Assembly: GCA_043814605.1 (NCBI GenBank)
Contig: JBDRJV010000010.1
Coordinates: 1,340-65,339 of the forward strand
Source of the DNA: Candidatus Omnitrophota bacterium
Lineage (GTDB): Bacteria > Omnitrophota > Gorgyraeia > B26-G9
DNA length: 64,000 bases
Reading direction: 5' to 3'
The notes under the pieces were generated by a model that was not told the origin of the DNA, did no database searches, and was given only the letters and a program-made list of their open reading frames with translations. Both the position numbers and the translations under genes were made by a program. Positions 2,109 through 61,698 of the stretch are shown piece after piece. Numbering within the stretch: the first letter of the stretch is position 1; every line of letters begins with the position of its first letter.

Positions 2109-2169
2109 AATAGTTTTATGCATCTAAAAAAAAATAATTAGGTTTTGTTAAATTTTAAGAGGATTTATT

Positions 2170-3024: not shown

Positions 3025-3026
3025 CA

Positions 3027-27182: not shown

Positions 27183-27269
27183 GCGGAGGTGGTGGAATTG
27201 GCAGACACGCTAGCTTGAGGGGCTAGTGGGAGCAATCTCATGAGGGTTCAAATCCCTCTCTCCGCACCA
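27183..27269 (+). tRNA. tRNA-Leu (anticodon GAG)
   Basis: Cloverleaf with a long variable arm and anticodon loop TTGAGGG. T-arm GGTTCAAATCC and an encoded CCA. Confidence 0.85.
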
Positions 27270-27274
27270 TATTA

Positions 27275-27303
27275 AAATCTTCCTTTTTGGAAGATTTTTT
27301 TAT
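27275..27303 (+). terminator. intrinsic terminator after tRNA-Leu
   Basis: AATCTTCC-TTTTT-GGAAGATT followed by a T7 run. Confidence 0.6.
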
Positions 27304-27595
27304 TTAGGTGAGGGATTTGAAGCAAGCGCCCGCCAAGTGGACACTATGAAGTGGACAGTGGCGAGGTCTCGCCATGCTTTGTGGCGGAAACGCCGATTTT
27401 CACCCCACCCCATTGGTGTTGCTTCGCGATCTAAAAAAATAATCCTTTTTTACCTGCTTTTTTGGTTTAGGCTTGCACGGATTAAAATGTTGTGGTATAC
27501 TTCCACATCACTATCTTAAAGGAATTTATTCGACATGATAGTAATGTTATTTCTAGGGGGATAACAGAGTGAATTGTAGCATTTTATTAAATTTT

Positions 27596-27673
27596 GGGAT
27601 ACGAAGCGATAGCGTCTTTACTCTAATTAAGGCGTTATGAGAAGCCCCCTACTTCCCCCGTTCTTCGTATCCC
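27596..27673 (+). ncRNA. long-loop hairpin repeat, copy A (GGGATACGAAG...CTTCGTATCCC + U-tract)
   Basis: Perfect 11-bp inverted repeat enclosing a 56-nt loop with the conserved C-rich segment GCCCCTACTTCCCCC. Followed by TTTTTT. Confidence 0.5.
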
Positions 27674-27727
27674 TTTTTTATATTTAAATTTAAATTACTA
27701 TAGTTTATTGAAAAAAACTAATATATA

Positions 27728-27736
27728 TGGTATAAT
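27728..27736 (+). promoter_or_regulatory. extended -10 promoter (TGGTATAAT) between the two hairpin repeats
   Basis: TGnTATAAT consensus. The same TGGTATA(A/C)T element recurs upstream of other genes in the window (35044, 42894). Confidence 0.45.
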
Positions 27737-27846
27737 TCTACTAAAGATAAACACTTAACTTATTCAGGGGGGTAGCGGGTTTTTTTTTATTCGCATTAAT
27801 TAAACAGTTTTTAAAAGTATTGTTTAATAAACTTATTCTAAATTTT

Positions 27847-27920
27847 GGGATACGAAGAACAGAATCGCCTTATCCCCTAAGGCGGTTATTGGCCCCTACT
27901 TCCCCCTGTCTTCGTATCCC
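27847..27920 (+). ncRNA. long-loop hairpin repeat, copy B, in the 5' leader of the 27966 gene
   Basis: Same 11-bp stem as copy A. The loop has a CGCCTTA-TCCCC-TAAGGCG sub-hairpin and the conserved GCCCCTACTTCCCCC segment. Followed by a T-rich tract. Confidence 0.5.
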
Positions 27921-27965
27921 TTTATTTAATAAGTTTAATGAGGTTTAGAATTATAATTTACTAAC

Positions 27966-29669
27966 ATGGGGAGGGGAAAAGAAATGGTTAGCAAAAATAT
28001 AAAACAATGTTTGCATTCAAGAAAAATACTGATTTTTTTAGTTATTTTTGGGGTTTTATTTTTTTATGTAAGACCTTTATTTTCTCAAGAAACAGGTTTT
28101 CTTAAAACTAAAATTAAAACTGTTTCCGGGCCAAAACTTAATGAATCGGAACGGGTTAAACAAGTACTGCGCAACCTGGAGATTCCGGAAGATATGGGTT
28201 TTATTAAAGAAATCCATGTACCCAGTAATCCCAACGACCAGTTAATTATCACGATTCAGGATCTGCATTGCCATTATCAGGCGCAAAAAAATATTTGTAA
28301 AGTTATTGACTACCTGACGACAACCTACGGTTTAAAAGTAATCAGTGTTGAAGGCGGCAGCGGTAAAATTGATACTACTTTTTATAAGGAGCTTCCGGAT
28401 GAGAAAATTAAGGAACAGGTAGCCGATTATTTTTTAAAAGAGGCGAGGATTAATGGTACGGAGTATTTTGCGATAACCACAAATAAAGACATTGCTCTTT
28501 ACGGAGCAGAAGATGACAAATATTACAATAAAAATCTGGATGCGTTTCTCAAGGCTCTGCCAAACCGTGAGAGGATTTTAGAAAATATTTCTGTCTTAGA
28601 AAATGATTTAAGTATTCTTAAGAATAAAATATATAACAAAAAACTCAAAGCATTAGATGATTATATTGTTGCTTATGAAAATGGAGAAGTAGATTTTGAG
28701 AATTATATTACGTATATCTGTAAACTCTACGATTCGGATAAACTTGCCCGTGAATTTCCACAGGTTAATCAGCTTTATGAGAGTTTACAGATTAAAACTA
28801 AAGTAGATTTAAAAAAAGCAGAAGAGCAGCGCAAGGAGCTGATTGATTATTTAAGTAAAAATTTAACCCGGTATGCTCTGGAAGAATTTTTAAAAGCGAC
28901 ATTTGAATTCAAGGCAAAAAATCTAGACAGCTTAAGTTATCATAATACACTGGAAAAACTTTATCGTGAAATGCAGAATAAGTCTCAGGTTTTAGCCAAG
29001 GCTTGGCCGCAATTACATTGTTATATTCAATATTTAAATAAACATGAGACATTAGATAAATTTGAACTTTTCCACCAGCTGGATAAATTTGTAGAAAGGA
29101 TTAAGAACAATATTTATACCAGCTATACGCAGAAAACATTAGACCATAATTTAAAAGTTATTCGCTTGGCCCGTAACTTGTTTTCAACTAAATTATTAAA
29201 CCGGGATATGCAAGCCATAACTAAATACCGCAGTGAATTTAAAGCCAAAGATATGAAGAAGTTTATTAAAAGCCAGATGCAGCGGTTAAAGTTAGAGTTA
29301 CACATACCTTCCGATGAAGATCTAGAGGTGATGGAAAAAACTTTGCCGGATTTAGAGGATTTTTATGAATATGCGCACAAACGTAATAATATTTTGGCTA
29401 ATAATACGGTTCAAGCTATGGATGCAGAAAAAGAAAATATCGCGATTTTAGTTACCGGAGGGTTTCATACAGACGGGATCACAGATTATTTTAAAGATAA
29501 ACGAATTTCTTATGTGGTGATTGCCCCAAAAATTGATGAATTAGATCAAGATGATACCCGTTATATTAATGCTTTAAAAGGCAAAAAAACACCGTTTGAG
29601 GAAATGATTGAAAACGAAGCAACCCCCTTAAAAGATACATATTTTGAGGAAAATGAAAATAAAAATTAA
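27966..29669 (+). CDS. hypothetical signal-anchored protein (likely start 27984 with GGAGGGG RBS)
   Basis: N-terminal TM helix. Mostly charged/helical and no recognised domain. Strong SD GGGGAGGGG lies 8 nt before ATG 27984. Confidence 0.5.
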   Translation: MGRGKEMVSKNIKQCLHSRKILIFLVIFGVLFFYVRPLFSQETGFLKTKIKTVSGPKLNESERVKQVLRNLEIPEDMGFIKEIHVPSNPNDQLIITIQDLHCHYQAQKNICKVIDYLTTTYGLKVISVEGGSGKIDTTFYKELPDEKIKEQVADYFLKEARINGTEYFAITTNKDIALYGAEDDKYYNKNLDAFLKALPNRERILENISVLENDLSILKNKIYNKKLKALDDYIVAYENGEVDFENYITYICKLYDSDKLAREFPQVNQLYESLQIKTKVDLKKAEEQRKELIDYLSKNLTRYALEEFLKATFEFKAKNLDSLSYHNTLEKLYREMQNKSQVLAKAWPQLHCYIQYLNKHETLDKFELFHQLDKFVERIKNNIYTSYTQKTLDHNLKVIRLARNLFSTKLLNRDMQAITKYRSEFKAKDMKKFIKSQMQRLKLELHIPSDEDLEVMEKTLPDLEDFYEYAHKRNNILANNTVQAMDAEKENIAILVTGGFHTDGITDYFKDKRISYVVIAPKIDELDQDDTRYINALKGKKTPFEEMIENEATPLKDTYFEENENKN

Positions 29670-29831
29670 ATCATTTTAAAAGATAGAACATTTTATACAT
29701 CTTAAACGCTTAGTTTTCAACGTATTATAGCGTTTATTTTTATGTTTGGGAGTTAGCAAAAGAATGTTTTTTATGATATACTTTATGACTATTTTTAAAA
29801 ATTAAAAAACAGGGATTAAAGGATAGTTTTA

Positions 29832-32800
29832 GTGAAAAATTTTAATAGGAAAAAATTCAGTTTAGGGATTAAAATTATTGCCATTGTGCTTATTCAAGCA
29901 TTCTTGGTTTTAGATTTTGCTCAGGCGGCGCAAGGAGATTTTTCTTATCCTGCACAAAAGGAACAGCTGAGTACTTTGGCTCCGCAAATGCAGCTGGATG
30001 CGAAAGCTGTACAAAATATATTCACTACAGCTAATCAATCCCCTCAAAAAACACAGGATTTTGTGCAAACCAAACCTAAGGATTCTAATCCTCAAACTAA
30101 AGGATCTGGGCCTAGAAGAATTATAGCCAGTACAATATTATTTTTGTATTTAACGTTTCCATTTTTAAATACCCTGCCATTTTTTAATGCTTTGGTTTCA
30201 ATTGCTGCACCTGTTCAACAGACTCAGGCTGTGAGCATTACTGCCCCGGAAATGCCCCAAGAATTAGCACAATTAATTTCTAAAGTATCTATTGAAAAAC
30301 CTACAGATATCCAAGGAAGTCCAACTGAAGAGATTAAGGTAATTAAGACCAATATTTATGAAGGCAGGATGGAGTTTACCAATTTAAAGGCCAGAGAAAG
30401 AGTAGAACAAATTAATAAAGCTATAAATATAATTTGGCAGAAATATCCGCAATTGTGGCAATCAGATGATTATATTACAGAAAGAATCAAGGCTACGAAT
30501 AATTCTCCAGAATCAATTGCATTAGGGCATGCACTGCTTTTAGAGAAACTTATTAAGCATGAGAATGTAAAAGAGAAAAATGCTCTTTTATATATTGGTA
30601 ATGTTGATCAGGGAGTAGCGGAAACTCGGGGTTCACAACTGAGATGGTTTGGCAGGCCGCTCATAAAAATCAGTAAAGACTATATTGATAATCCATTCTG
30701 GATTGCATTTATGCTAGAGCATGAGAATATTCATGCTAAAGAAGGTATAATTCAAAGATTGATTCTTTATAATATTCTTAATTTTGCTAAATTCGTTTTT
30801 TCCTTTGCTATACCGGAAGAAAAAGAAGCTTATAAAGCAGAAGCAAGATTTACTAAGATTTTTGGCATAGAACCATTAGAAGAGGGGGGAATGTTTATTC
30901 ATGAATTAGATGTAATGCCACCATATTATCACCCAAAAACAGAAATTCTAATTAAGTTTTTAATTTTTAATTTTTTTACAACAATTTTACCTTTATATTT
31001 CATCGGGCGTTTAATTATAAGATATTTTCAAAATAGAACTGGTAACCAACGTAACACATATACAGAAAACAAGAGGGGTACTGGGTTAAGTTCAGGCGCA
31101 AGAAAAAGTTCACTAAATATTGGTTCTGGAAGAAGAAACGTAAGAAAAAACGTAAGAAAAAACCGTTATCGCTCACTTATATTACTTCCTTTTCTAAAAT
31201 TGTTTGAAGTTATTGACCCGGCAAACTCATTGGCTGCAGATTGGCTGAGTGATTTAACCTCAAATCCTTTGTTTGGTATTAATTTAGCAGGAGTTGTTTT
31301 TGGCATCGCAGCAATAATAATTATTATTACGCTTAGAAAAATAAGGGAATTAAGGGATTTAGATGATACTTTGCGATTTAATTTTAAGGGATTAGCTGAT
31401 TATTGGCATGAATTTGTCTTGAACAAATTGAAATTAATTAATGAAAATAAGATTATGGATAATTTAAAAAGGTATAAAGATAATCCAACTTTGGAAATCG
31501 TCCGGGGATTTATCTTAGAAACAATTACTAAATTTAAGGAAAATCGCCAGTTAATTCGTTATCATAATGAATTTCATATTAATGAAATGCTTGATTTTTT
31601 TGAAAAAATAACAATAAATAATAATTTTAAGTTTTTAAGAGGGAATAGATCGGAAACTTTAATCAAAGCCGCAATTTATATGCATGATGCCGGATATTTC
31701 AGAAAACTTAAAGAAAAAGAGTTTATCCGCATAGGCCATGAAGCAAAAAGTAATGAAATGTTCCGTGATTTTCAGGTTTACTTAAAGAATTTTATACTTG
31801 ATCCCATTGACCAAAATGATTTTCAATTATTTTCTCAACTGGAATTAAAGGCAATCGAACATATGGTAGATATGACTGCGCTTAAAACCGGGCAAGAAGA
31901 AAAAGAATTTGACCAGGAAGTCGCAGATTACACCCAGGCCTATAATCTATTAATGAAATATCAAAGCCCGGGAGCTATTAATCCTCAGGATTTAGAAACT
32001 TTAAAAAATAATAATTTCATCGTTAATAAATTTCAAGATAATGGAGTATTATTAGCAGACTTAAATAATCTTGAGCACCGCCAATTAATTCTGGATGCAA
32101 TCTTAGGCGGTGAAATATTAGCTATGGCAGATATTTATGGCCAGGATAAAAGTTATATTTTCCGTATTCCTTATCTGCAAAAGGAATTTAATGAAGACAG
32201 AAACCGGGGCGATCAAACCAGTCCAGCAGCAGAAACAATGCTTGAGCAGGTTGCCGGAAGTTATGGATTCCATCAGTTTGCTGAGAAAATAAAGCTGAAT
32301 AAATTAAAATTAATTTTACCTTATTTGAATTCGACTCCAGAATTAATTAAAGCCAGACAGGAAACATTAAAAATAAGCAGGAACATTGATGCCGCAATTA
32401 ATGAAATAAAATCAGGAGAATATATACAAGCGGATATTGATGTATTATTGGATTTTGTTAATCAAGGAAAAAAAGATTTTGGTTATGATCAGAATTTCAG
32501 CCAAGAGCTTTTTGATGAAATTAATGAATTTGTTCAAAAAGGGAAAAGGCAAAAAGAACAAGGTATTGTTCAAGATTTAAATTTTTTTCAGGCCGTAGAA
32601 AAGTCAGAACTATATCAGCTTATTGATCAAAAAGGAAAAGATCTTTTACTTAAAAGTTTAAAAGTTAAATTCGTTGATCCCCCTAAATCACCTGAAGAGG
32701 AACAAAACGGGGCAGGAATTATTATTAACCAGGGAGACTCGATTTCCCAGACCGGAGCGTATATTCTTTTATCCGGCTATGTAAAAGTTAAAAAAGATGG

Positions 32801-34925
32801 TTATCGAGTCAATACTTTAGTCCCCGGTGCTATTTTTGGGGAAATCGCGGTGATTAACGGATATGACCGGACTTCTACAGTACAAGTACCGCATAATGTA
32901 AAAGTGCCGGTAAATCTTGTAGAGATTCCTGCAGCAATATTAAAACAGCTTTATTCAGAAAATATCAGATTAAGAGAGTTTTTAGATAAAACGATTAATA
33001 CCAGATTACAGGAACTCGAAGAAATTGAAAAGTTTGATAAAACTAACCGGGAAATAAAAACAGATGAAATACTGAAAATTATATATGGACAAGATCATAT
33101 TATTAAAAGAAATGAAAATGCCCGAGAAATGGCGCAGCGTATAATAGATCGAGCTCCGGTATCAGAAGTTATGGAAAAACTGGAAAAGATATCACAAGGC
33201 CAAGCTCAGGAAATATCAAATGAGGAATTAAATTTAATAATCGCCTTATTGAATTCCCAAAATCCTTTGGGGCAAATTATTAATAAAGGGGAAAAAGGAG
33301 ATAAAATAGTTGCGTTACAGGTACCGGGGATATCTGAAACAAGTCTGGGAATTAAGCAATTAAATGATATTTTAAAGTATCAGTTGAATACACGTTTGAT
33401 TCAAATTAAAAGAGATATTATTCTTAAGTTAATGCAGGAGCAGGGATTAATTAATGATCAGCAGGGTAGAATTTATAGTACTTATAAAGAAGATGTTTTT
33501 TTAATTAACAAAAATATTCTGTTAACCCAAGCTAAACTTGAAGATTTACGCAAAGAATTTAGAAAAAGAATATTTGAGTTTATAAAAGAAAATTCTATCT
33601 TTAGGGATAGGCTTATTAGTAACAACATTACCCTTGAAGAAATAGCGCAGTTTCCCCTTGATTTTGGGGTAAGCGAAATAAAAGAAGCTTCTGCTCAAGG
33701 CCGGCTCTTAGCGGATATTAATGCGCATCAGGCAGTCACTATTTCTAAACTGAATAATTCTGCATTTTTTTCAGAACAAGATTATAAAAATGTAATTGCT
33801 AAAATTAATATTTTAAGAAATCAGCTTGTTTTTAAAACTTCAGTTTTTGACCAGGAAAATGGAGCCTATTTCTTGAAAAATAATATTAGTGATGCCTTAA
33901 GGAAAAATATGTTATGGAGCGGTCTTCCTCTAAACATTAAAGAGTATTTTAATAATTTAGAAGTTAATTATGATCTGGCCCGGGAATATTTTTCTTATTT
34001 AAATATCCATGATTACATAAAAAAATGGTCGATTGATGGTGATTTTGAATCGACTGCTGATGATGATGTTTTTGAATCGGCTTATGAAAGAGCAGAAAAG
34101 ATACTGGATATTACAAACCAACTTAAAACTATCCAAAAAAATCAAGATCCCAAGTTATTGTTTAGCCAGGCAAAGGAGTATTTAGAACGGGAAACCAAGG
34201 TCCAGGAGTTTACTTCAGCCCATGCTTTTTATAATTTTGGTTTAAAAGCTAAACATCCGGTTATAATCACACTGGATATTGAAAAAATGGGATTAATGAA
34301 TATAAAATCTTTTGAAATAGATTTGCAAAAAATCAGTAATGCTATTTCTGAAGGGGATCAGGAAAAACTGCAAATGCTTTGGATGAGTGCCGCTGATGAT
34401 GTGACTGAAAAGTTGGTTAAAACAATGCAAATCGTGAAAAAATTTATAATTAAAAAATTCGATTTAGAACAATATCAAATAGTCGAAGAAATGGGCGGGG
34501 ATGAATTCAGCTTAATTATTGATAAGAAAATTGAAACTCAAGAGTTAGCGCATTTGCTGAATGTTATTAAAAATTATGTGAGTCAGGAAATGGATATTGG
34601 GGTTCGCATGGCGGCAACGCAAGCCATAGAACAATTGCGGAAAGATTTTGAAAATAGAGGCAAAATACGGGATCCTTTAGCCTTTGCTGTAGGAATGAAT
34701 ACTTCCGATGAAATGATTGAGATAATTAAACAAAATTATGAAAATAATGGAGAGTATGATAAAGTAATTATTCAGAATGAAAAAGGCGACATGATTATAT
34801 ATGAAAACGTACTATTAGAACAGCCTGTAACAACAGTAGATTTAGATATCCTTGAAGCAATTATTGGGGACATGCACCCCAATGACATATTAAAAGATTT
34901 GGATTTAGTGGGCCAGGCTATTTAA
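29832..34925 (+). CDS. giant multidomain membrane signalling protein: conserved N-terminal module + TM segments + HD phosphohydrolase + cNMP-binding + GGDEF
   Basis: HD motifs (HNEFHINE...YMHDAGY). cNMP-binding consensus (GAIFGEIAVINGYDRTSTV). C-terminal GGDEF (EEMGGDEFSLI). Several TM helices and a basic R/K-rich linker. Confidence 0.7.
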   Translation: MKNFNRKKFSLGIKIIAIVLIQAFLVLDFAQAAQGDFSYPAQKEQLSTLAPQMQLDAKAVQNIFTTANQSPQKTQDFVQTKPKDSNPQTKGSGPRRIIASTILFLYLTFPFLNTLPFFNALVSIAAPVQQTQAVSITAPEMPQELAQLISKVSIEKPTDIQGSPTEEIKVIKTNIYEGRMEFTNLKARERVEQINKAINIIWQKYPQLWQSDDYITERIKATNNSPESIALGHALLLEKLIKHENVKEKNALLYIGNVDQGVAETRGSQLRWFGRPLIKISKDYIDNPFWIAFMLEHENIHAKEGIIQRLILYNILNFAKFVFSFAIPEEKEAYKAEARFTKIFGIEPLEEGGMFIHELDVMPPYYHPKTEILIKFLIFNFFTTILPLYFIGRLIIRYFQNRTGNQRNTYTENKRGTGLSSGARKSSLNIGSGRRNVRKNVRKNRYRSLILLPFLKLFEVIDPANSLAADWLSDLTSNPLFGINLAGVVFGIAAIIIIITLRKIRELRDLDDTLRFNFKGLADYWHEFVLNKLKLINENKIMDNLKRYKDNPTLEIVRGFILETITKFKENRQLIRYHNEFHINEMLDFFEKITINNNFKFLRGNRSETLIKAAIYMHDAGYFRKLKEKEFIRIGHEAKSNEMFRDFQVYLKNFILDPIDQNDFQLFSQLELKAIEHMVDMTALKTGQEEKEFDQEVADYTQAYNLLMKYQSPGAINPQDLETLKNNNFIVNKFQDNGVLLADLNNLEHRQLILDAILGGEILAMADIYGQDKSYIFRIPYLQKEFNEDRNRGDQTSPAAETMLEQVAGSYGFHQFAEKIKLNKLKLILPYLNSTPELIKARQETLKISRNIDAAINEIKSGEYIQADIDVLLDFVNQGKKDFGYDQNFSQELFDEINEFVQKGKRQKEQGIVQDLNFFQAVEKSELYQLIDQKGKDLLLKSLKVKFVDPPKSPEEEQNGAGIIINQGDSISQTGAYILLSGYVKVKKDGYRVNTLVPGAIFGEIAVINGYDRTSTVQVPHNVKVPVNLVEIPAAILKQLYSENIRLREFLDKTINTRLQELEEIEKFDKTNREIKTDEILKIIYGQDHIIKRNENAREMAQRIIDRAPVSEVMEKLEKISQGQAQEISNEELNLIIALLNSQNPLGQIINKGEKGDKIVALQVPGISETSLGIKQLNDILKYQLNTRLIQIKRDIILKLMQEQGLINDQQGRIYSTYKEDVFLINKNILLTQAKLEDLRKEFRKRIFEFIKENSIFRDRLISNNITLEEIAQFPLDFGVSEIKEASAQGRLLADINAHQAVTISKLNNSAFFSEQDYKNVIAKINILRNQLVFKTSVFDQENGAYFLKNNISDALRKNMLWSGLPLNIKEYFNNLEVNYDLAREYFSYLNIHDYIKKWSIDGDFESTADDDVFESAYERAEKILDITNQLKTIQKNQDPKLLFSQAKEYLERETKVQEFTSAHAFYNFGLKAKHPVIITLDIEKMGLMNIKSFEIDLQKISNAISEGDQEKLQMLWMSAADDVTEKLVKTMQIVKKFIIKKFDLEQYQIVEEMGGDEFSLIIDKKIETQELAHLLNVIKNYVSQEMDIGVRMAATQAIEQLRKDFENRGKIRDPLAFAVGMNTSDEMIEIIKQNYENNGEYDKVIIQNEKGDMIIYENVLLEQPVTTVDLDILEAIIGDMHPNDILKDLDLVGQAI

Positions 34926-35043
34926 GCGATAAAAAACATTTTAATCGAAAGTTATTTTTTGTAACTATAATAGAATAAATAAGTTAAGTTAATGATAATT
35001 TTTTAAAAAATTATCATTTTTTTTTGTAAAAATATAATTTATA

Positions 35044-35052
35044 TGGTATACT
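35044..35052 (+). promoter_or_regulatory. extended -10 promoter (TGGTATACT) upstream of 35161 gene
   Basis: TGnTATAcT preceded by TTGTAA at an appropriate spacing. Confidence 0.4.
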
Positions 35053-35160
35053 TTATAATCCTTTTTATTAAGTAGGCGGGTAAAATAGTATAAGTTATTA
35101 ATTTACAGGTAATAAAAGACTAATACTTCATTAGTAAAATTAAAAACATAAATTTAAAAA

Positions 35161-37719
35161 ATGAAGCCAAAAAACACAAAATTTCAAAAAATAATTGCAT
35201 TTTTATTAATGCAGACATTTCTAATCATAACTTGTTTGCCAGTGCCGGGATATGCGGGGAAGAATACTCAAGAAAAAAAGGTAAATCAGGTTAATTTAGA
35301 TAATCTTTCTCCCGTGCTTGGCTTAAATAGTGAAACAATAACAAATGTATTCAAACAAATTTCTCTTGAGCAGCGAGATAAAACAAAGGATATCATAACA
35401 AAAGGTGCATTAAGGCCATTGTTTTTAAGAGAAGATAATTTATTGATTTATGATAAGGCAAGTAAACAAGCAATGCTGGGGTTTTTTTTGGGTAAGGGAG
35501 TGGTCTTATTAAGAAAGATTTCTCTAAAATATTATAAGCCGGCAGTCAGAAGAATTGATGGATGTGCTTTGATAACTTTAAAAACAGAAAAAGGAATAGG
35601 ACTAATCCACTTTTTCCCGGATAATACTTTTAAAAGAGTTAATCATGTTATAAAGGCTCTGGTAAAAGAGCTAAAACAGCAAATAAATGCAGATTCTCAT
35701 GCAAAGGTTGAAATAATTTTTTCTAAGCTAACTTTTGAAAACAATGACGTAAGTTATGCGCCTTTTGAACAAACACTGATTCAGGGGTTTAAAAGAGAGT
35801 TAGGCATCAAGGATATTAAAATAATAATTGAAGATGGAATAATCGGCAATCTCGAATTTGATATGGAGCAGGAAAAATGGGATTATGGAATAGCTGAGAT
35901 TAAAGTAAAACAGAAGAAGTTTTTTTATAACCGTAATTTATTAATAAAATTAAAGGCTATATTAAAAATAATTAATGATATTTATGAAAAAATAGTATAT
36001 TTTCCCGCTCTATTTATAAGATCTAAAGATGAAAAAAGATCATCAGCTCTAAAACCGTTATTACTTGTTACGAAAGGCTCATATGATGAGCCCTCAATCA
36101 GGCGTAGCTATAGTGATTTAAATAATATTACTTTTCGGGGAAAAATTGATGAAGTTATTTTACAATTTGCAAAAAAATATCCCGGCCGGAAAAATAAGAT
36201 AAATATTCTGCTTATCGGCGGAGGAAGATTGCAGGATGAACAGCTTAAAGTGCATATCGAGGCTGATTTAAAGATCCCAAAGAACAAGGTGAATGTATTT
36301 TCATACGCAAATGAAAACTTAGCTTTAATGAGAGATAAAAATCAGTTAACGATTGGCGATATTGATAATGGGTTGCCATATAATAGTGATTTTTTTCATC
36401 TGGCTATTGTTTCTGATGTTGTCGCTCCTTATTTTAAGAATAAATTTGCAGCCTTAAGACAGATACAAAGGACATTAACTAATGACGGAAAAGCTTTTGT
36501 TGCTGATTTTGGATTATTTTCATTCGTGGATAAACGGGGGAAATTCCATAATCTAAATCTCCTAATGTTTAAAACAATCAGTCAAAATAAATATGAAAGA
36601 GATGATGGTAAAGATTCAGTCATCTTAAGAAATATAATATTTGGTAAAACTCCCCGGATTCCTGAGTTTAAATTAAAAGAACCTATCCCGTTTAAGTTCG
36701 GAAAAGCTCTAAAATATGAAAGCAGATATGAATGGAATCAAACACTGGCTGATTTATTAGATAAAATATCCAGCCAAAATAGATTTTTTTCATTTTTTAC
36801 ATTTAGTATATCTATCTTTAGCTTTTCATTTTGGGGAAAAGAAATAAACATTAATATTCCCGCAGGATATATTTATACTGGCCTGGGATTTTTTATTGCT
36901 GCGCTTGCTTTTAAATTTCTCCCTAAAATCATAATAGGTATTAACTCAATAAAAAATTCTTTTAATCCGCAAAGAAGGGAAATGCTTGAGAAAATTTTTA
37001 ACCCTTATTTATTATTAGGAATAATGCTTATTCCTTTTATCAGTTTAAAAGGGGATTCTAATTTACAACATACAACCAGGTCTTTAGTTGTAACTCTTTT
37101 ACTCAAAATAGCATTAACGCGAGAAACTTCTGATGATGTTTTTGAACGTGATAAGCTGATTATTAATTTAACCTATACCCAGGCATGGCTGGTTTTTGAT
37201 GAAATAAATAATAAAGAAATCGCGGGGATTGCTTGTGATATTTATACAAAAGCGGCAAATGCAGTTTTAACTGTAAGAGATGGATATTATCCGGAAACTG
37301 ACTTTTATGATTATCAGTTATTTAGAGTTATTGCGGCAAAAATTAATGGCGAAGACTGGGTTTCTCTAATGCAGGAGTTTGCGGATGAAAATAATAAAAA
37401 CAAAAAAAGACCTATGCAAAATGAAGATGCGCAAGATGGTGATACAGGAATTATCATTGCTGCGGGTATTGGCTGGAATAATAATGGGAAAATTCCTCTT
37501 AATGCTTATAAACGTAAGGTGCAACCAATTTCTAAATACCCAGTCCTGAAAGAATATTTTGATGAAAATAGCCAAACAGTTCAAAATTCTGTTCCGGAAG
37601 GAAGGGAAAAACCCGAAAAATTACAGGCAAATTTACCTTATATCGTTAATATATCAAAGGCAGGAAAAGCATTATTGCAAACAATAGAAAAACACAGTTT
37701 AATTGAACAATCAATTTAA
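35161..37719 (+). CDS. large membrane protein with conserved N-terminal module (paralog family), central Rossmann-like region, multiple TM helices
   Basis: N-terminus is homologous to those of 29832, 38072 and 61699. TM cluster at aa about 530-620. No confident catalytic domain. Confidence 0.5.
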   Translation: MKPKNTKFQKIIAFLLMQTFLIITCLPVPGYAGKNTQEKKVNQVNLDNLSPVLGLNSETITNVFKQISLEQRDKTKDIITKGALRPLFLREDNLLIYDKASKQAMLGFFLGKGVVLLRKISLKYYKPAVRRIDGCALITLKTEKGIGLIHFFPDNTFKRVNHVIKALVKELKQQINADSHAKVEIIFSKLTFENNDVSYAPFEQTLIQGFKRELGIKDIKIIIEDGIIGNLEFDMEQEKWDYGIAEIKVKQKKFFYNRNLLIKLKAILKIINDIYEKIVYFPALFIRSKDEKRSSALKPLLLVTKGSYDEPSIRRSYSDLNNITFRGKIDEVILQFAKKYPGRKNKINILLIGGGRLQDEQLKVHIEADLKIPKNKVNVFSYANENLALMRDKNQLTIGDIDNGLPYNSDFFHLAIVSDVVAPYFKNKFAALRQIQRTLTNDGKAFVADFGLFSFVDKRGKFHNLNLLMFKTISQNKYERDDGKDSVILRNIIFGKTPRIPEFKLKEPIPFKFGKALKYESRYEWNQTLADLLDKISSQNRFFSFFTFSISIFSFSFWGKEININIPAGYIYTGLGFFIAALAFKFLPKIIIGINSIKNSFNPQRREMLEKIFNPYLLLGIMLIPFISLKGDSNLQHTTRSLVVTLLLKIALTRETSDDVFERDKLIINLTYTQAWLVFDEINNKEIAGIACDIYTKAANAVLTVRDGYYPETDFYDYQLFRVIAAKINGEDWVSLMQEFADENNKNKKRPMQNEDAQDGDTGIIIAAGIGWNNNGKIPLNAYKRKVQPISKYPVLKEYFDENSQTVQNSVPEGREKPEKLQANLPYIVNISKAGKALLQTIEKHSLIEQSI

Positions 37720-38071
37720 AAATAACTCTTTCCCGGCATTCTTTAATTACATAAAGAACATATTCAACCCCCCCCTAGAAACAGTAGATTTTAAACTTAT
37801 TTTGCTTTTTTAATAGCTTTTTTACTAATTCTCCGATACAAAAGAAAAAAAATTTCTCACTCCCCTTGCAGAATTAAAAATTATGTGATACACTTAAAAA
37901 GTCTTTTTAAAGTTGTTTAAAAATTGTTCGCTCTTTAAATTAAATATCTTTAGAAGAAAGTTTAAAAAGAAACTTAGAAACTCTTCTAAAAACGCATATT
38001 AGGGGTATGCGCAGTTTTACCTAAATTGCAGTTTAAATAGTTGAATAGCAATTAGAAAGAAAGGTGAAATT

Positions 38072-40546
38072 ATGAAGCAAACCTCTAAATCAAAATGGAT
38101 TTATTTGCGGATAATTAGTTTAGTCTTAATCCAGGCATTTTTTTGTCTTAATATTAGTTATTCCTTTTCCCCAAAGCTTTCCTCATATAAGAATCAAAAA
38201 CAAACGGAAGTGGCAACTTTATCCCCGCAAATTTGTATCAGTATTGAATCATTTCAGTATAACTATTCTAACTATCACAAGTATTTTAATCAATCCGGGA
38301 ATAATCAAACAGATTTTACTAATCCGGATCATGATCAGCAGATTTCCATTATTGATTTTTATGAACAGATTAACCCTGATGAAGCAGGTAAAAAGGATCC
38401 TGGAAGTACGCAAATTTATCATCTCTCCTGGAGAACAATTAGCTTAGCATTAGCAGGTTCTTTTATTGCTGCGGTGGAGTTTTTTTCTTTCTTGCAGGTT
38501 TTAGGCTTAACAGGGCAAATTACGTTACTAACACTTGCCGGTCCGTATTTTGCCGCATTATTTATGGGAAGCTTGATTTCTGTATTGTGTGGGATCGGGT
38601 TCAGAGGAATAGGGTACTCTCTGGCTGCTGCTAGGCAAGGATTAAAGGGTAAAAATCATGTAAACCAAAAAGGAGTATTTTTAAAAATTCCTGGTTTAGT
38701 AAATCAGGAACAACGCAAACAAATTATGGAAAATGGGAAAAAGGTACATAATACGTCAACTTTTACATTAATCAGTGCGATGCTGGCTTTAATTATTATT
38801 CCAGTACAAATTGAACTGGCTGCTTTTGTCATTATCCCTATGGTTGTAAATATTATATTATATTTAGCCAAGTCCATAAATACAGAGATTCAATATCAAG
38901 AAAAGACTAAGTTTAATAAGATCTATTGTACCTGGCAAACTTTAATTCAGGCGTTTATTGTACCGTTTATGTACTTACGTATTGAAACAGTTCTTAAAGC
39001 TTTTGCGCAATCGCCAACTATAACCGGTCTAATCAGTGCTTTAACAATCCCGGTAAGTTTGCTAAGTATTGGCGGGTTTGCCGGGATTGGTTTTCTAATT
39101 GTGGTAATTGCTTTAATAATGCATGAGATGGGGCATAATAGCGTTGCGCAGAGTTTAAAAGTTGAAAGATCTTTTGGTATTGATAAAAAGGGAATATCTA
39201 TGGAATTAAGTAAAGAGCTGGAGCTGGAAAAAATCAGGATGATTGTACAAAGAGGAATTTATAATAATAAATGGTTTATTTCATTAGGTATGCAGTTTTT
39301 CTGGTTCATTTTTTTTGGGATAATTGCTTGTTTGTCAAGTATCCAAATTTTTATAGTTATCCCGCTGATTATTGGAAAAGTAAATAAAATCTTTTCTGAA
39401 ACTGAGGAAGATGAGTTATTTTTAGAGAAAACCAAGGGAAAAAATGTTTTTGAAATATTAAGAGAAGTAAAAGATTTTGTTTCAGTGTTAGCAAAATCTA
39501 TAAAGAAAGAGGAAAAGCCGGCAATAATACTGCTTGGCGGTTATTTTGCCGTAGGTAAAAATGAACTTTTTGAACTGATAAATAAAACTTTAAAGGGAAG
39601 TAAAATGTTCAATAAGAAAATCCGTATTATATCCATAGACCGGTTATTAAAGACAGAATCTAAAAGAGAAAAGAATTTATCCTATCCTTATAATACCTAT
39701 GAATATGAAAAATATATCAAAATGGTGGAGGATTTTTCTGAGGGGAAACCGATTTATTTGCCATTTTACCTGCATATTTTTTCAAAGAGATTGTTAATTA
39801 GTAAAGAAATAATTCAAGCATTAATTAAAGAAAAAGGTGTAATTTTAAGTGATTTTGATGGTGTTAAAATGATAAAGCTGGATAAGGCTAAGAAAAATTT
39901 GCCAGTGAAGAATTTTGTAAGTTCTCAGCGATTAGAAAGGATAAAAAAACAAATAAAATCAAAAAGGCAGAAACCGGAAAAATATCTCCAAATTTTTAAG
40001 GTTTTAAGTGAAAAGCCATTGAGCAGTTTTTTAGTTAATAGCGCTAATGATATCTATGTAAGAATTAATAATGATGGGACAGGGGAAATTGTTGAGCAAA
40101 TCCGGCCGGAAAAAGAAGCGATTCATGTTTTTGAGTTTGAACAGGCATTGACATCTCCCCGGGCAAGAAACAAGGCAAAGAAAACACTGGTAGTCATGGC
40201 TTCTCAGAAAAAACGGCAGGAATATTTCATGAAAAGGTGGAGAAACGGGTTAAGATACCTTCATCTGAGTGAGCAGGAGATAGTGGAAAAGTTTAATAAT
40301 TTCATAAAAAGAGAGAATAATGATTTTGAATTTAAAAACGGGCTCTTAAAAGCACAACTAATTTTAAATACGGAAGTGCCGATAGCTGAGCAATTGCAGA
40401 AAAAAAAGAAAATTAATCATAAAATTGATGAAGAAAAAAAACAAAAACTTATTAATAAACTAAGTCAAACATTAAGCTGCTTAAAAAGTTTAAAGATATC
40501 AAAAGAAAAATCACCAATTTTTCAAACTATTCAAATAGCTATTTAA
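38072..40546 (+). CDS. large polytopic membrane protein with conserved N-terminal module, intramembrane HExxH (HEMGH) motif and C-terminal degenerate uridine-kinase/PRK-like P-loop domain
   Basis: Shared N-terminal module. MHEMGHN sits inside a TM helix (site-2-protease-like). The C-terminal ILLGGYFAVGKNE...ISIDRLL...P(F)Y pattern resembles the Udk/PRK family but has a non-canonical P-loop. Confidence 0.5.
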   Translation: MKQTSKSKWIYLRIISLVLIQAFFCLNISYSFSPKLSSYKNQKQTEVATLSPQICISIESFQYNYSNYHKYFNQSGNNQTDFTNPDHDQQISIIDFYEQINPDEAGKKDPGSTQIYHLSWRTISLALAGSFIAAVEFFSFLQVLGLTGQITLLTLAGPYFAALFMGSLISVLCGIGFRGIGYSLAAARQGLKGKNHVNQKGVFLKIPGLVNQEQRKQIMENGKKVHNTSTFTLISAMLALIIIPVQIELAAFVIIPMVVNIILYLAKSINTEIQYQEKTKFNKIYCTWQTLIQAFIVPFMYLRIETVLKAFAQSPTITGLISALTIPVSLLSIGGFAGIGFLIVVIALIMHEMGHNSVAQSLKVERSFGIDKKGISMELSKELELEKIRMIVQRGIYNNKWFISLGMQFFWFIFFGIIACLSSIQIFIVIPLIIGKVNKIFSETEEDELFLEKTKGKNVFEILREVKDFVSVLAKSIKKEEKPAIILLGGYFAVGKNELFELINKTLKGSKMFNKKIRIISIDRLLKTESKREKNLSYPYNTYEYEKYIKMVEDFSEGKPIYLPFYLHIFSKRLLISKEIIQALIKEKGVILSDFDGVKMIKLDKAKKNLPVKNFVSSQRLERIKKQIKSKRQKPEKYLQIFKVLSEKPLSSFLVNSANDIYVRINNDGTGEIVEQIRPEKEAIHVFEFEQALTSPRARNKAKKTLVVMASQKKRQEYFMKRWRNGLRYLHLSEQEIVEKFNNFIKRENNDFEFKNGLLKAQLILNTEVPIAEQLQKKKKINHKIDEEKKQKLINKLSQTLSCLKSLKISKEKSPIFQTIQIAI

Positions 40547-40648: not shown

Positions 40649-42811
40649 ATGCCAATCTATGATTCAAAACAACATATCAAATCTGGAATTCCTTTAGGCG
40701 GTATTGGCGCCGGGAAGTTAGAAATAACGCCTTATGGCACTTTAGATTATATTACTTACCAGAATAATTGGACTAACCCGATATGTAATGCGACAAATAA
40801 AGATAAACAAAAAGCGCAGGGAATTGCGGGTTTTCATTTCGCCTTGTATGTAAATGCCCAGGCCGCGGTAATTTGTAAGTTATTACAGACAGAAAAAATC
40901 CAAAATTATCGGACGATAAGTCAAATTGAATTTAAAGGCGAATTTCCTTATGCGCGTTTGAATTATAAAGATCGTAACTTACCAGTTAAAATTTCTCTTT
41001 GTGCCAATTCAATCTTCATCCCTGCGGATATAAAAAATTCCAGTTTGCCGGCTTGTGTTTTTGAATTTGAAGTTATGAATCCAATGCCGAAGAATATTGA
41101 AGTGGGCATTATGTGTGTAGCGCGGAATTTAATTTCTAAAAACTCCGTGGGCAGATTAAACAGTTTAAAAAAATACGGGAAACTTGTGGGGTTAGAATTC
41201 TTACATACCCAGCCATTAGCGCAGGATTCTCAAGCGGGCGATACTTTCTTGAGTGTTTCCAAAAAATCCGGCAGAATTAGTTTTCTCTCTGGCTGGAATA
41301 TGCAAAAGGAAAATTTTTGTTTTGAACCTAAAGTAGGATTAGATGCTTTTGAATATTTTGAAAAAAATGGCACATTACCTAATCTAAGGATGAAACACCC
41401 TACTCAAAGCCAGAGTTTTGAACTCGGCGGTGCATTAGCTGTAAGTTTTAAATTAACTCCTGGTCAAAATAAAAAAGTACCGTTTTTCTATACCTGGCAT
41501 TTTCCGCAGCATTTTCAGGGCCATTTATATGAAAAAAGTTTTAGAAAAAGTAAAGATGTTGCGATTTATGTAGATAAAAACATAAATTTTTTGCAAGCCA
41601 GAACAAGGCAATTACCCGCGATAATAAAAAGTATGGAACTTGCGCCCTGGTTAGCAGATGCTTTAATGAACAATCTCTATACGCTTTTTTCCTCAAGCTG
41701 GTTAACCCGTAATAATGATTTTACTATGTATGAGTCTCCCTTAATTTGTCCTTTGATGGGGACTTTGGATGTTTATTTTTATGCATCCGTAGTGATTGGC
41801 TTGTTATACCCGGAACTGGATAAAAAAGCTTTATTATTATTTAAAAAAAATATTCGCAAAAACGGATATATACCGCATGATTTAGGGTTAGATAGAATTG
41901 ATTTGCCTTCAAATGGAACAACCATGCTGTTATGGAAAGATTTAAATCCTAAATTTATTCTGCTGGTTTATCGGGCATATCTTTTTTCCGGAGACCGGAA
42001 ATTTTTAAAAGATATGTATCCGGCTCTAAAACGGGTTTTTGAGTGTAGTTTAAACTTCGATAAGAATAATGACGGTTTGCCGGACAATGAAGGTTTTGAT
42101 ACCACTTTTGATACATGGGGATTTACTGGGGCGGGTTCTTATAATGGGAGTATTTTTCTGGTAAGCCTTTTGGCGCTTAAAAAAATTGCGGATTATTTTA
42201 ACGATAAGGGATTAGCAAAAAAGTGCTTACATTGTTTTTTAAAAGGACAAAAAAGTTTTGAGGATAAATTATGGAACGGGAAGTTTTATATCACATCAAA
42301 TGATCAAGATAAGATGTATGAGTCTTGTACTGTTGCGCAATTAGCGGGTCAGTGGTATGCATATCTTTTAGGTTTGGGAAGAGTTTTCCCGGAAGATAAT
42401 ATTAAAAGTGCGATAAAATGGATTTTTAAATTAAATGATCAAGATTCTTCATATGGCGCAACAAATTCTGTATTTGTTAATAAAAGAAGAGATAAAGAAT
42501 CCTACCATTCTCAAAATATTTGGCCGGGCGTGTGTTATTCTTTTGCTGCCTTAGCTATATATGAGGGGTTTGAGAAACAAGCTTTAAAACTAACAAAAAA
42601 AGTTTGGGAAACGATAAGTATAAAAAACAAAAGCCCTTGGAATCAGCCGGATGTAATCATTGCCCAAGACGGAAGTTTCGGGTTTGGTGATTATTATATG
42701 CGTAATAATGTAATTTGGGCTGTGCTTTTAGCTTTAGCAAAAAATAATCCTAACATAGAAATCGGCCTTGAGAAAATCAAGGTTTTAGTCAGATTTATGC
42801 ATAAACTCTAA
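40649..42811 (+). CDS. glycoside hydrolase family 116 (GBA2-like glucosylceramidase / beta-glucosidase)
   Basis: N-terminal GIPLGGIGAGKLEI motif characteristic of the GH116 N-domain. 720 aa with (alpha/alpha)6-like C-terminal region. Confidence 0.65.
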   Translation: MPIYDSKQHIKSGIPLGGIGAGKLEITPYGTLDYITYQNNWTNPICNATNKDKQKAQGIAGFHFALYVNAQAAVICKLLQTEKIQNYRTISQIEFKGEFPYARLNYKDRNLPVKISLCANSIFIPADIKNSSLPACVFEFEVMNPMPKNIEVGIMCVARNLISKNSVGRLNSLKKYGKLVGLEFLHTQPLAQDSQAGDTFLSVSKKSGRISFLSGWNMQKENFCFEPKVGLDAFEYFEKNGTLPNLRMKHPTQSQSFELGGALAVSFKLTPGQNKKVPFFYTWHFPQHFQGHLYEKSFRKSKDVAIYVDKNINFLQARTRQLPAIIKSMELAPWLADALMNNLYTLFSSSWLTRNNDFTMYESPLICPLMGTLDVYFYASVVIGLLYPELDKKALLLFKKNIRKNGYIPHDLGLDRIDLPSNGTTMLLWKDLNPKFILLVYRAYLFSGDRKFLKDMYPALKRVFECSLNFDKNNDGLPDNEGFDTTFDTWGFTGAGSYNGSIFLVSLLALKKIADYFNDKGLAKKCLHCFLKGQKSFEDKLWNGKFYITSNDQDKMYESCTVAQLAGQWYAYLLGLGRVFPEDNIKSAIKWIFKLNDQDSSYGATNSVFVNKRRDKESYHSQNIWPGVCYSFAALAIYEGFEKQALKLTKKVWETISIKNKSPWNQPDVIIAQDGSFGFGDYYMRNNVIWAVLLALAKNNPNIEIGLEKIKVLVRFMHKL

Positions 42812-43545: not shown

Positions 43546-43974
43546 GGGGGTGAAAGGGTTCGACTTAAGTGGATTAAGTAAGAGCAGCATGTCGAGGTGG
43601 TCGGGAGGCCTCGTTAAACACCTGGCAAAAAAATAAACGCTAAAACTGAAGTTCCAGCTAGCGTGGATGCACTTCTTGAAAAAATCGGAACGGGCATTGC
43701 TCATCCGACATTTTCCGGAATGCTTCCAACACCAGTGTTGTTTTAAAATAAAACAACCCGCTTTTTTATCTGCGCCTGCGGGGTAGAAAAGCGTCATCAG
43801 CAGGATCGTCCCGCCGCCTAGCTTTTAGCGGGCGGGATTAAACCCTTAAAAGCTGCCTTTTGAAATACCCTGTTTGCTGGGGATTTTAAAAGAAAGATTT
43901 ATAAACAGACTAAACATGTAGATACTCTTATTGGTTGCTTAAGGACGCGAGTTCAATTCTCGCCACCTCCACCA
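43546..43974 (+). ncRNA. ssrA: tmRNA (ssrA)
   Basis: 5' end GGGGGTGAAAGGGTTCGAC and 3' tRNA-like end GGACGCGAGTTCAATTCTCGCCACCTCCACCA (T-arm + acceptor + CCA). smpB is immediately upstream. A canonical ALAA-type tag reading frame could not be identified by eye. Confidence 0.75.
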
Positions 43975-60290: not shown

Positions 60291-60351
60291 TATCACCGTA
60301 GCTGGGATTTGAAGCAAGCGAACGCAGACCTTTTAGATTCTTGGATTCTAA

Positions 60352-61098
60352 TAGGGACAGCGACTATTTTATTGACTTTTTTTGCGATGATTTGTATTAT
60401 AATCATATGCCAAGAATAGCCAGATTAGTAGCCGTTGATTTGCCGCATCATATAACGCAGCGAGGTAATTATCAAAATGATATTTTTAAAGATGATGCAG
60501 ATAAGCAAATGTATATGGAGTTTATTTCTGAAGCGAGTAAGAAATTTGATCTTACAATACTAGCGTATTGCTTAATGAATAATCATGTTCATTTTATTGC
60601 AATCCCCCGAGAAGCAAATTCTTTAGCCAAAACCTTTAATACCGCCCACATGAGATATTCTCAATATTTTAATAAGAGACAAGGAGTAAAAGGGCATTTA
60701 TGGCAGGGAAGGTTTTACTCCTGTGTTTTAGATGAAGGACATTTTTTAGCCGCAATACGTTATATAGAAAGAAATCCTGTTCGGGCAAAGATAGTGAAGA
60801 AAGCCTGGGAATGGAAGTATTCTAGTGCGGGAGCGCATATTGGCAAAGATGAAAAATATTTAAATTCAGTAAAACAAATTTTTAAATATATTGATTTTAA
60901 TGAAAAAAGCTGGAAAGAGTACATCGAAAGGCAAGATAAAGAAGAAGATAAAAAGCAGATTAAAAAGCATACGATGAATGGCCGGCCTTTAGGAGAAGCC
61001 TCTTTTATTGCAAAATTAGAAAAAAACAGCGGAAGGCGATTACATGCTTTAGCTTGGGGAAGGCCTCCCAAAGCTAAATAAAATGGTCGCTGTCCCTA
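60352..61098 (+). mobile_element. compact IS200/IS605-family-like (Y1 HuH transposase / RAYT-like) element bounded by 13-bp perfect inverted repeats
   Basis: TAGGGACAGCGAC at 60352-60364 and its reverse complement GTCGCTGTCCCTA at 61086-61098 flank a single transposase ORF. Confidence 0.65.
60407..61081 (+). CDS. tnpA: Y1 (HuH) transposase, IS200-like / REP-associated tyrosine transposase-like (likely ATG 60407; ORF track TTG 60341)
   Basis: HuH motif LMNNHVHFIA and a catalytic-Tyr region (GHLWQGRFYS) typical of COG1943/Y1_Tnp. Confidence 0.75.
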   Translation: MPRIARLVAVDLPHHITQRGNYQNDIFKDDADKQMYMEFISEASKKFDLTILAYCLMNNHVHFIAIPREANSLAKTFNTAHMRYSQYFNKRQGVKGHLWQGRFYSCVLDEGHFLAAIRYIERNPVRAKIVKKAWEWKYSSAGAHIGKDEKYLNSVKQIFKYIDFNEKSWKEYIERQDKEEDKKQIKKHTMNGRPLGEASFIAKLEKNSGRRLHALAWGRPPKAK

Positions 61099-61349: not shown

Positions 61350-61698
61350 ATCAGTGATCCCAATAAAATCTTAATAGGTATTTCTTCACTAGTGTCCGGT
61401 TATAAGTTGAATAATTCTAGTTGGTTACAAGAATCAGTTAATTTGTTGTTGTATTCATAATCTGTAAGTAGTTGTAATATCGGCACTTTCTCAAAAATAG
61501 TAACACTAAAAATCTGTAAAATTGTGTAGAGATTTAACTTTATTTTTAGCTGTTTTTTGATAATTGCTATTAGCACATATATGGAAATAGCTATCCAAAT
61601 TTGGGTTTTCACCGCATTTTCTGATTTATTTGAAAAAAGGAGGATATTCAGGTATACTTTAGTGCTTATTAACTAAAGGAAAAAAATAGGGAAAAAAA

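Follow-up and report, generated by a model that had tools for sequence, protein, structure and literature searches.

What do four proteins of otherwise different make-up share at their N-termini, and what might read it? This question is raised by a 64,000-nt stretch of contig JBDRJV010000010.1 (the window; G+C 33.7%), part of a metagenome-assembled genome (MAG) of a Candidatus Omnitrophota bacterium. An original prediction made from the DNA alone had pointed to open reading frames (ORFs) at positions 29832, 35161, 38072 and 61699, and all four are present on the plus strand as it described. We call their products B (29832–34925, 1697 aa), C (35161–37719, 852 aa), D (38072–40546, 824 aa) and F (61699–63183, 494 aa); at 494–1697 aa, the earlier term "giant" is generous for them. 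D is identical to NCBI entry ABIG64_02975, a "hypothetical protein" of a Candidatus Omnitrophota bacterium MAG. The explanation that we favour, at a little short of an even chance, is that the four belong to an Omnitrophota-specific family marked at both ends, which a cognate TIKI-like enzyme, the product of gene A directly upstream of B, processes or recognizes.

Signatures at both ends of the proteins

A hidden Markov model (HMM) of the first ~70 residues recovered only B, C, D and F among the 468 six-frame window ORFs of at least 40 aa, with scores of 67–115 bits and a runner-up at 8.8 bits. When each protein was left out of the model in turn it was still the top non-training match (B 27.8, D 28.3, F 22.5 and C 7.9 bits), C being the weakest of the four by this test. 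The shared segment is therefore specific, and it extends over ~65 aa. It occupies residues 1–68 of B (29832–30035, with LAP at 29976–29984), 1–68 of C (35161–35364, LSP at 35305–35313), 1–73 of D (38072–38290, LSP at 38219–38227) and 1–67 of F (61699–61899, LSP at 61825–61833).

As a positive outcome of a search with such a model, the original prediction named a multi-member family, always N-terminal and co-occurring with a specific peptidase or transporter. An exhaustive hmmsearch of 1.84 billion representative proteins did return 62 proteins at E≤1e-3, B, C and F among them, and the recurrent neighbour is A, a predicted hydrolase of the TIKI/TraB superfamily. Below, a protein that carries the N-terminal module is called a member; related proteins are numbered P0008 and so on, and related loci L001 and so on. 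The 62 proteins are 73–3711 aa long, and nearly all were matched as a single stretch at residues ~1–70, starting within the first ~11 residues except in P0013 (residue 26), P0042 (residue 19) and P0024 (excluded). Named family members are Omnitrophota without exception, and their N-termini are strikingly alike, as in MKxKKSKFSLIFRIISLVLIQAFLVMDIAWAAGG…TLAPKLQLD…F. A word-index search with the four-sequence N-terminal alignment gave no match, the same search with D found D alone and no homologue of its body, and a genome scan with B yielded no relative; exact-sequence look-ups of D and RRF matched no record.

The likeness goes beyond generic signal-peptide composition, as is evident from the consensus of 104 unique modules. 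The n-region is positively charged, with Lys or Arg at 93% in column 10 and at 61–62% in columns 4 and 6, while columns 2 and 5 are often Lys too; the window proteins agree. The h-region is short, comprising 13 hydrophobic columns (11–23), and is ended by D/N24 (83%). The signal-peptide core reads K/R-I-I-A/S-h-h-L-I-Q-A-F-L-h-h-D-h-A-W-A, in which L16 (85%), Q18 (82%) and F20 (89%) stand out, and small residues occupy positions −3 and −1 (A/S/G 75% at column 26, A/C/S 88% at column 28). At this site B has AQA and F has AWA; C (YAG) and D (SYS) are weaker cases. After a spacer of 0–25 residues follows the near-invariant exported motif [ST]-L-[SA]-P-x-h-x-h-[NDS]-xxx-F-Q-xx-[FY], where T44 reaches 56%, L45 99%, [SA]46 96%, P47 96%, aliphatic residues 89% at column 49 and 88% at column 51, and N/D/S52 79%, followed by F/L56, Q57 and F/Y60 (86%). 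The original prediction had called the hydrophobic part a signal-anchor. Because a short h-region is followed by residues of the AWA type, the N-terminus more probably comprises a cleavable Sec signal peptide and a conserved exported segment.

The assertion that the module is no lipobox, Tat signal or class III pilin signal is borne out by the same consensus. Past the h-region there is no conserved Cys (column 28 is Cys in 9% only), the n-region is Lys-rich with no RR consensus, and a type IV prepilin signal can be dismissed since there is no Gly–Phe junction or Glu and the core contains Gln; in contrast, the window ORF at 1509–2108 does match N_methyl. A double-glycine leader was also rejected: Gly is the commonest residue at columns 29–31 but at only 47, 32 and 39%, none is found in the four window proteins, and the leader is a hydrophobic signal peptide. 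No Pfam-A or NCBIfam model covers the module, in keeping with the original view that it belongs to no known signal class, and an NCBIfam scan of the members detected no family common to all.

A second feature, absent from the original prediction, lies at the other end. B stops at …LVGQAI (34905–34922), C at …LIEQSI (37699–37716), F at …LIFQAI (63163–63180) and D at …TIQIAI (40526–40543), where the IFQTI that comes before, as in …(IFQTI)QIAI, looks like a duplicated tail. The pattern [QI][AS]I$, applied to all six-frame window ORFs of at least 60 aa, retrieved exactly B, C, D and F. Across the family the consensus is [LFI]-[VI]-[EGN]-Q-[AS]-I-COOH, with residue-specific conservation at −1, −2, −3, −5 and −6, and this tail is likewise in neither Pfam nor NCBIfam. 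Among 61 library proteins, 37 end in [AS][IV]; the other 24, mostly short (73–615 aa) or very long (1458–3711 aa), are taken to be truncated sequences or fragments. When roughly called, non-overlapping ORFs of the window and of six related loci were compared, an [AS][IV] end was found on 20 of the 21 N-module proteins with a complete 3′ end and on 0 of 94 other ORFs (Fisher p=1.8e-21), the single tail-less protein being a doubtful 5-bit match. Some members have an ordinary signal peptide yet keep both L[SA]P and the tail, and in one member VWA is followed directly by LSP with no spacer, which indicates that L[SA]P and the tail form the core of the signature and that the spacer is dispensable.

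Several origins for the tail were considered and discarded. It is not a sortase or exosortase-type C-terminal signal, since the chain stops at …Q[AS]I with no terminal hydrophobic helix. Nor are the gene ends carried by a repeated DNA cassette or mobile element, because DNA similarity stops at the coding ends and does not run into the flanks. Mimicry of a tmRNA tag was rejected as well. The tmRNA of the window (43546–43974, plus strand; Rfam 195 bits) has an odd ARAGORN tag prediction of four residues, APAG, whereas frame 0 offers a long alternative tag, AKTEVPASVDALLEKIGTGIAHPTFSGMLPTPVLF, before the stop; this likely tag ends in …PVLF and bears no likeness to the members' tail.

Gene A and its linkage to the tagged proteins

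Gene A (27966–29669, plus strand, 567 aa) heads the array and was not mentioned in the original prediction. It is 66% identical to the ORF upstream of a B-like protein in L001, and has ~30 orthologues at 57–71% identity, all from Omnitrophota or "PVC group" MAGs and all annotated as hypothetical. In every locus with DNA downstream of A, the next gene encodes a tagged member, and a member often precedes A too. This linkage holds without exception in about 23 independent Omnitrophota loci, namely the window, L001–L004, the 12 with flanking DNA out of 17 found by scanning species-representative genomes with an alignment of A orthologues, and ~6 non-duplicate loci out of 15 from metagenomes.

The primary locus has the order HemN, tRNA-Leu(GAG), an optional small member, A, the array, GH116 and SmpB, which is kept in the window, L001, L003, L004, L011, L022 and L024, with array content that is wholly different in each genome. 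The same tRNA-Leu (27183–27269, plus strand, in the window) precedes A in L001, L003, L004, L022 and L024 but not at the secondary loci L002 and L018, where members again follow A. Downstream, the untagged GH116 glycosidase (40649–42811, plus strand) is the conserved boundary of the variable array, with synteny in L003 and L011. The original description of tandem genes in an accessory-looking block past tRNA-Leu thus stands as regards the tandem array; the site itself is a conserved chromosomal one, and only its contents vary. Divergence of the array members is far above that of A. Peptidase_MA_2/TPR and HemN were rejected as partners, since both are syntenic at the primary locus only and are missing from secondary loci.

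An AlphaFold2 model of A, built with 25 homologues (predicted local distance difference test, pLDDT, 84), has an N-terminal transmembrane (TM) helix (residues 21–39) and an alpha/beta core formed by residues ~72–175 and 486–515, split by a large helical insert (178–482). The modelled core contains a parallel beta-sheet as in structures of the TIKI/TraB/ChaN/Ere superfamily, and A scored 10.0 against a Bcr135-type Ere-like protein (2rad), 9.7 against HopBA1, 9.3 against ChaN, 9.2 against a TraB-family protein, 8.5 against EreC and 8.0 against RRSP. H95, E123, R467 and H495 are invariant in 25 of 25 aligned homologues, and D93 in the 16 close orthologues. By sequence position and secondary structure, not by 3D superposition, D93-x-H95, E123, R467 and H495 reproduce the 2His/2Glu plus Arg constellation of the superfamily. 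The corresponding catalytic residues are E3900-x-H3902, E3930, R4001 and H4030 in RRSP, and Bcr135 has H85/E113 (PMC6254334); the His-to-Glu spacing is 28 in A, RRSP and Bcr135 alike. No NCBIfam model of the superfamily matched A, and a search of PDB sequences with the A profile found none. On the strength of the model and the catalytic-type residues, A is a predicted hydrolase of the TIKI/TraB/ChaN/erythromycin-esterase fold. Since six Lys/Arg and one His stand ahead of the TM helix, the positive-inside rule predicts that the N-terminus is inside and that the catalytic-type domain faces outward, sharing its side of the membrane with the exported L[SA]P segment.

Relatives of A occur in other settings. 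P0094 and P0095 (L007 and L008) are distant homologues (33–35% identity) fused to Ser/Thr protein kinase domains, in a quite different context of PP2C, FHA/sigma-54 activator, ClpB-like and ClpP genes. Extra A paralogues (~29% identity to A, some of 1277–1409 aa) are present in secondary loci (L002 1–9844, L005 1–9891, L018 1523–5247 and L035/L040), directly downstream of giants of ~7.8 thousand residues with a Peptidase_C39 domain; C39-bearing giants near some secondary loci are untagged. A conserved untagged protein of ~630 aa is encoded between the A paralogue and A at secondary loci, and an untagged ORF of ~620 aa lies inside tagged arrays (L013 6733–8616, L026 8186–10048, and also L033 and L042), with 84% identity between two MAGs.

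Protein bodies and surrounding chromosome

The bodies of the four window proteins had been described as unrelated, and BLAST detected no similarity among them after trimming of 75 N-terminal and 10 C-terminal residues; their proposed annotations were only partly confirmed. B has TM segments, an HExxH domain, a cNMP-binding domain (Pfam), an HD-like motif and a literal GGDEF motif. C also has TM segments, and its methyltransferase-like body rests on a weak match. D is multi-pass and combines HEMGH with a weakly matched P-loop uridine-kinase-like domain. F contains three TM segments and a TPR-like C-terminal part, for which TPR_8 scored 20.8 bits, below the 25.7-bit cut-off. B-like homologues with both tags are P0008, P0009, P0012, P0013 and P0018, while P0005 and P0019 are B-like but tail-less; P0006 is D-like, and the methyltransferase-bearing P0007 and P0011 possibly resemble C.

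HExxH (HENIH, HEAIH, HESVH…) is kept in B and its homologues, in a domain between TM segments (residues ~126–371 of B). In D (residues ~345–360) and P0006, HEMGH or HEAGH lies beside a predicted TM helix, as in site-2 proteases, and is fused to a P-loop kinase. Judging by these motifs, several of the tagged substrates may be proteases themselves.

Among 37 complete members, Pfam assigned cNMP-binding, GGDEF, several methyltransferase families, DUF218, glutamate dehydrogenase, NDK, GDPD, patatin, CN-hydrolase, NUDIX and HEAT repeats; members in L001 also include a dual-specificity phosphatase and a trypsin-like protease. The bodies are thus diverse enzymes of cytoplasmic type. By hydropathy, TM segments beyond the signal peptide range from none (P0022, at 2372 aa, and P0041, P0042, P0046 and P0062) to many, and a gene called as 10,644 aa in L002 begins with the module.

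F is encoded away from the array and adjoins tRNA-Lys, tRNA-Glu and an IS200-type transposase gene. The latter, a Y1 transposase gene at 60341–61081 (plus strand), sits between the two tRNA genes and F, which hints that F came to its site by insertion. An extended −10-like box, TGnTATACTTTA, is found 60–100 nt before the starts of B, C and F (~29753–29782, ~35024–35052 and ~61570–61590), and a near-consensus TTGAAA-17-TATAAT with TG lies upstream of A (27708–27736); the promoter scan overall gave no enrichment over shuffles. The ~700-bp gap between tRNA-Leu and A (27270–27965) contains no ORF, although a small tagged protein is encoded there in other genomes. Its first 200 bp have a G+C of 0.42–0.44 versus 0.34, with no Rfam match, and a degraded small member was ruled out by a negative tblastn search with small members.

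The surroundings of the array are ordinary chromosome, with genes for fatty-acid synthesis, ack-pta, SMC, a HemN-like radical SAM protein and tRNA-Leu(GAG), as well as GH116, SmpB, tmRNA, an amidase, queCEF, fumarase and rpsB-tsf-pyrH-frr. The SMC protein (17557–21516, plus strand, 1319 aa) has an inserted glycogen-binding module (AMPK1_CBM/CBM48) at residues ~653–741, just past the hinge. Its orthologue in another Omnitrophota MAG (L004 395–4351) has the same CBM48 insertion, which is unusual in bacterial SMC. A pseudopilin (N_methyl), a protein resembling K of type II secretion systems and a PilM/PilN fusion are encoded at 1509–4376 (plus strand), and are not consistently linked to tagged arrays in other loci.

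Competing explanations and relation to known systems

We favour a scheme in which the tagged proteins would be exported by Sec, signal peptidase I would cut after AWA, and A would then recognize and probably trim the exposed L[SA]P segment. The C-terminal tail would act as a second short recognition motif for a separate putative reader. A role for A at the N-terminal segment is suggested by analogy with TIKI, which removes N-terminal residues of Wnt, by the variable and dispensable spacer, and by the compartment that enzyme and segment are predicted to share. The earlier idea, an N-terminal tag of unrecognized class dedicated to sorting or anchoring, is supported, with the qualification that the hydrophobic part is more probably cleaved than retained as an anchor. 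This function is inferred from genomics, as are signal-peptide cleavage, an action of A on either tag and a possible role for the tail.

A number of observations weigh against a cognate enzyme of this kind. A Foldseek search of A against the PDB was not significant (best E 0.068), with EreC, Bcr135, HopBA1 and ChaN still ranked top, and the Pfam models TraB, ChaN (Cofac_haem_bdg) and Ere (Erythro_esteras) matched neither A nor the 25 homologues; furthermore, A has Asp in place of Glu as the first acid of the constellation. Remote homologues of A (29–40% identity, including the kinase fusions) have no detectable members beside them and were dropped as markers of the system, and the dispersed members F and P0022 (L009) are encoded far from A. 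Adjacency is no proof of an enzyme–substrate relation. Many bodies need cytoplasmic cofactors (GGDEF, P-loop kinases, S-adenosylmethionine (SAM)-dependent methyltransferases, NDK and glutamate dehydrogenase), so the tail of multi-pass members may be cytoplasmic, or else the proteins may work in another cell. If cytoplasmic, the tail would be on the opposite side from A, which could not then read both tags. An AlphaFold2 model of F made with the family alignment to look for contact between the termini was of low confidence (pLDDT 54.5) and uninformative.

A wider proposal is that Omnitrophota possess a previously unknown sorting and maturation pathway, in which a membrane-tethered TIKI-fold enzyme would serve a regulon of substrates with two-ended tags, from 170 aa to 10 thousand residues long, many of them enzymes of cytoplasmic type that would work outside the cell or in prey. 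This extension is more doubtful than its core. If true, it would give the sortase/exosortase paradigm its first N-terminal counterpart and offer a way to learn how the phylum handles its giant and effector-like proteins.

Other explanations account for parts of these data. The module could be a specialized export signal like those of accessory Sec substrates, with the LIQAF core and L[SA]P routing proteins, giants included, to dedicated translocation, and with A unrelated or acting downstream. Conservation of the h-region does exceed what hydrophobicity demands (Q 82%, F 89%), a conserved motif lies early in the mature region, and the 10,644-aa protein carries the module. The AST domain of accessory Sec substrates, an early mature-region motif, is a parallel to L[SA]P. 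The divergent SecA-like domains of giant Omnitrophota proteins would be a candidate route; such proteins are proposed, in one preprint, to export themselves or accessory proteins (10.1101/2023.11.21.568195). We nevertheless consider this explanation unlikely, because L[SA]P and the tail are retained in members whose signal peptide is ordinary, so that the special core is dispensable, because no SecA2/SecY2-like gene is linked in any locus examined, and because the tail and the constant adjacency to A are left unexplained. Somewhat less likely again is that the tagged proteins are effectors delivered to a host or prey, with the tags as secretion or translocation signals, A as a maturation enzyme and the bodies acting in the target cytoplasm. 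The array is hypervariable at a conserved site and diverges fast, the bodies are reminiscent of sets of effectors (patatin, GDPD, dual-specificity phosphatase, trypsin-like protease, NUDIX, methyltransferases, kinases and cyclic-nucleotide modules), and some members, such as P0022, lack any TM segment beyond the signal peptide but contain SAM- or ATP-dependent domains. The TIKI-fold proteins HopBA1 and RRSP are themselves effectors, and Omnitrophota are proposed to be host-dependent or predatory (PMC10066038; 10.1101/2023.11.21.568195). However, the several strongly hydrophobic stretches found in most members would halt transfer at the inner membrane of the producer, no secretion apparatus is consistently linked, and an extracellular location is a supposition.

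We regard it as improbable that the tags are docking or assembly motifs that bind a common scaffold or each other, giving a membrane super-complex that would be a split version of the giant multi-enzyme proteins of the phylum. Such proteins, with similar enzyme modules, are what the phylum is known for, both tags are on every array member, the alternating hydrophobic pattern after L[SA]P would fit beta-strand addition, and the tails of D and F follow Lys-rich stretches like flexible linkers. The tags are, however, near-identical on all members and so encode no order, and in members such as B the N-terminal tag is predicted outside and the tail inside. The module is also not repeated inside giants, with a single N-terminal stretch per match, and the low-confidence model of F has no contact between N- and C-termini. 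Finally, the termini could lack any dedicated function and be vestiges of common descent, the bodies having been swapped by recombination within a duplicated gene frame. They would be kept only as a serviceable signal peptide and a harmless tail, and the position of A beside them would be an accident in the history of the locus. Arrays of tandem paralogues next to a tRNA gene are a usual result of duplication and recombination, and A, B and C have recurring promoter-like elements ahead of them; against this, DNA similarity ends at the coding ends and is low within them, the conservation of the hexapeptide tail is residue-specific, and two independent genomic contexts both show the link to A. 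This explanation is very improbable, and of the rivals it is the least compatible with protein positions that are 96–99% conserved on unrelated bodies in at least a dozen genomes.

The subject matters beyond one locus, since the handling of whole classes of surface and secreted proteins has repeatedly come to light through short terminal signals tied to an enzyme of their own (LPXTG, PEP-CTERM and the like). A two-ended, mainly N-terminal signature with a TIKI/TraB-type partner would be an addition to these, and most bacterial proteins of that fold have no known function. The phylum is uncultured and noted for ultra-small, possibly predatory cells and record-length proteins, and the finding sharpens an existing puzzle, that cytoplasmic-type enzymes of the phylum are predicted to be exported. 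The two motifs provide a simple computational handle for listing substrates in any Omnitrophota genome, and a small tagged protein with A is a concrete pair for heterologous testing. Among the papers searched, none links Omnitrophota with TIKI-family proteins in this sense. Two preprints on long Omnitrophota proteins (10.1101/2023.11.21.568195 is one of them) report that most such proteins carry signal peptides and/or TM helices and mention C39 and SecA-like domains; the module, the tail and gene A are described in neither.

Among known systems, the closest in organization are PEP-CTERM/exosortase, LPXTG/sortase, GlyGly-CTERM/rhombosortase and PGF-CTERM/archaeosortase, in which a short terminal signature is likewise found on many unrelated proteins, with several paralogues per genome, is restricted to a lineage and is tied to one membrane enzyme. 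Signals of the PEP-CTERM/LPXTG type are C-terminal and tripartite (motif, TM helix and basic cluster), whereas here the main signature is N-terminal, after the signal peptide, with no more than a hexapeptide at the C-terminus; the neighbouring enzyme has a predicted TIKI/TraB fold instead of that of a sortase, exosortase or rhomboid. The YSIRK-G/S and KxYKxGKxW plus AST signals are similar in being of Sec type with family-specific residues, a required or conserved early mature segment and a second C-terminal signal (LPXTG in the case of YSIRK). Their motifs are lacking here, by consensus and by NCBIfam, no SecA2/SecY2 is linked, and the organisms are diderm Omnitrophota, not Firmicutes.

The tail …[AS]-I-COOH recalls ssrA LAA, MuA RRKKAI (ClpX), the PDZ ligands of Prc/Tsp and DegS, and the C-termini of type I secretion proteases. 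The likeness is that all are very short, set by a free carboxyl end, and small-then-aliphatic; the Gln at −3 and the hydrophobic pair at −5/−6 are not features of those motifs. A itself differs from TIKI1/2, PrgY/TraB, RRSP, HopBA1, EreA–C and Bcr135/136 in giving no profile match, in its helical insert of ~300 aa (178–482) and in having Asp as the first acid. To our knowledge, no protein of the TIKI/TraB/ChaN/Ere superfamily has so far been paired with a tagged family of many proteins. A terminal sorting signal with a cognate enzyme thus has precedents, but the position of the tag, its two-endedness and the class of enzyme do not.

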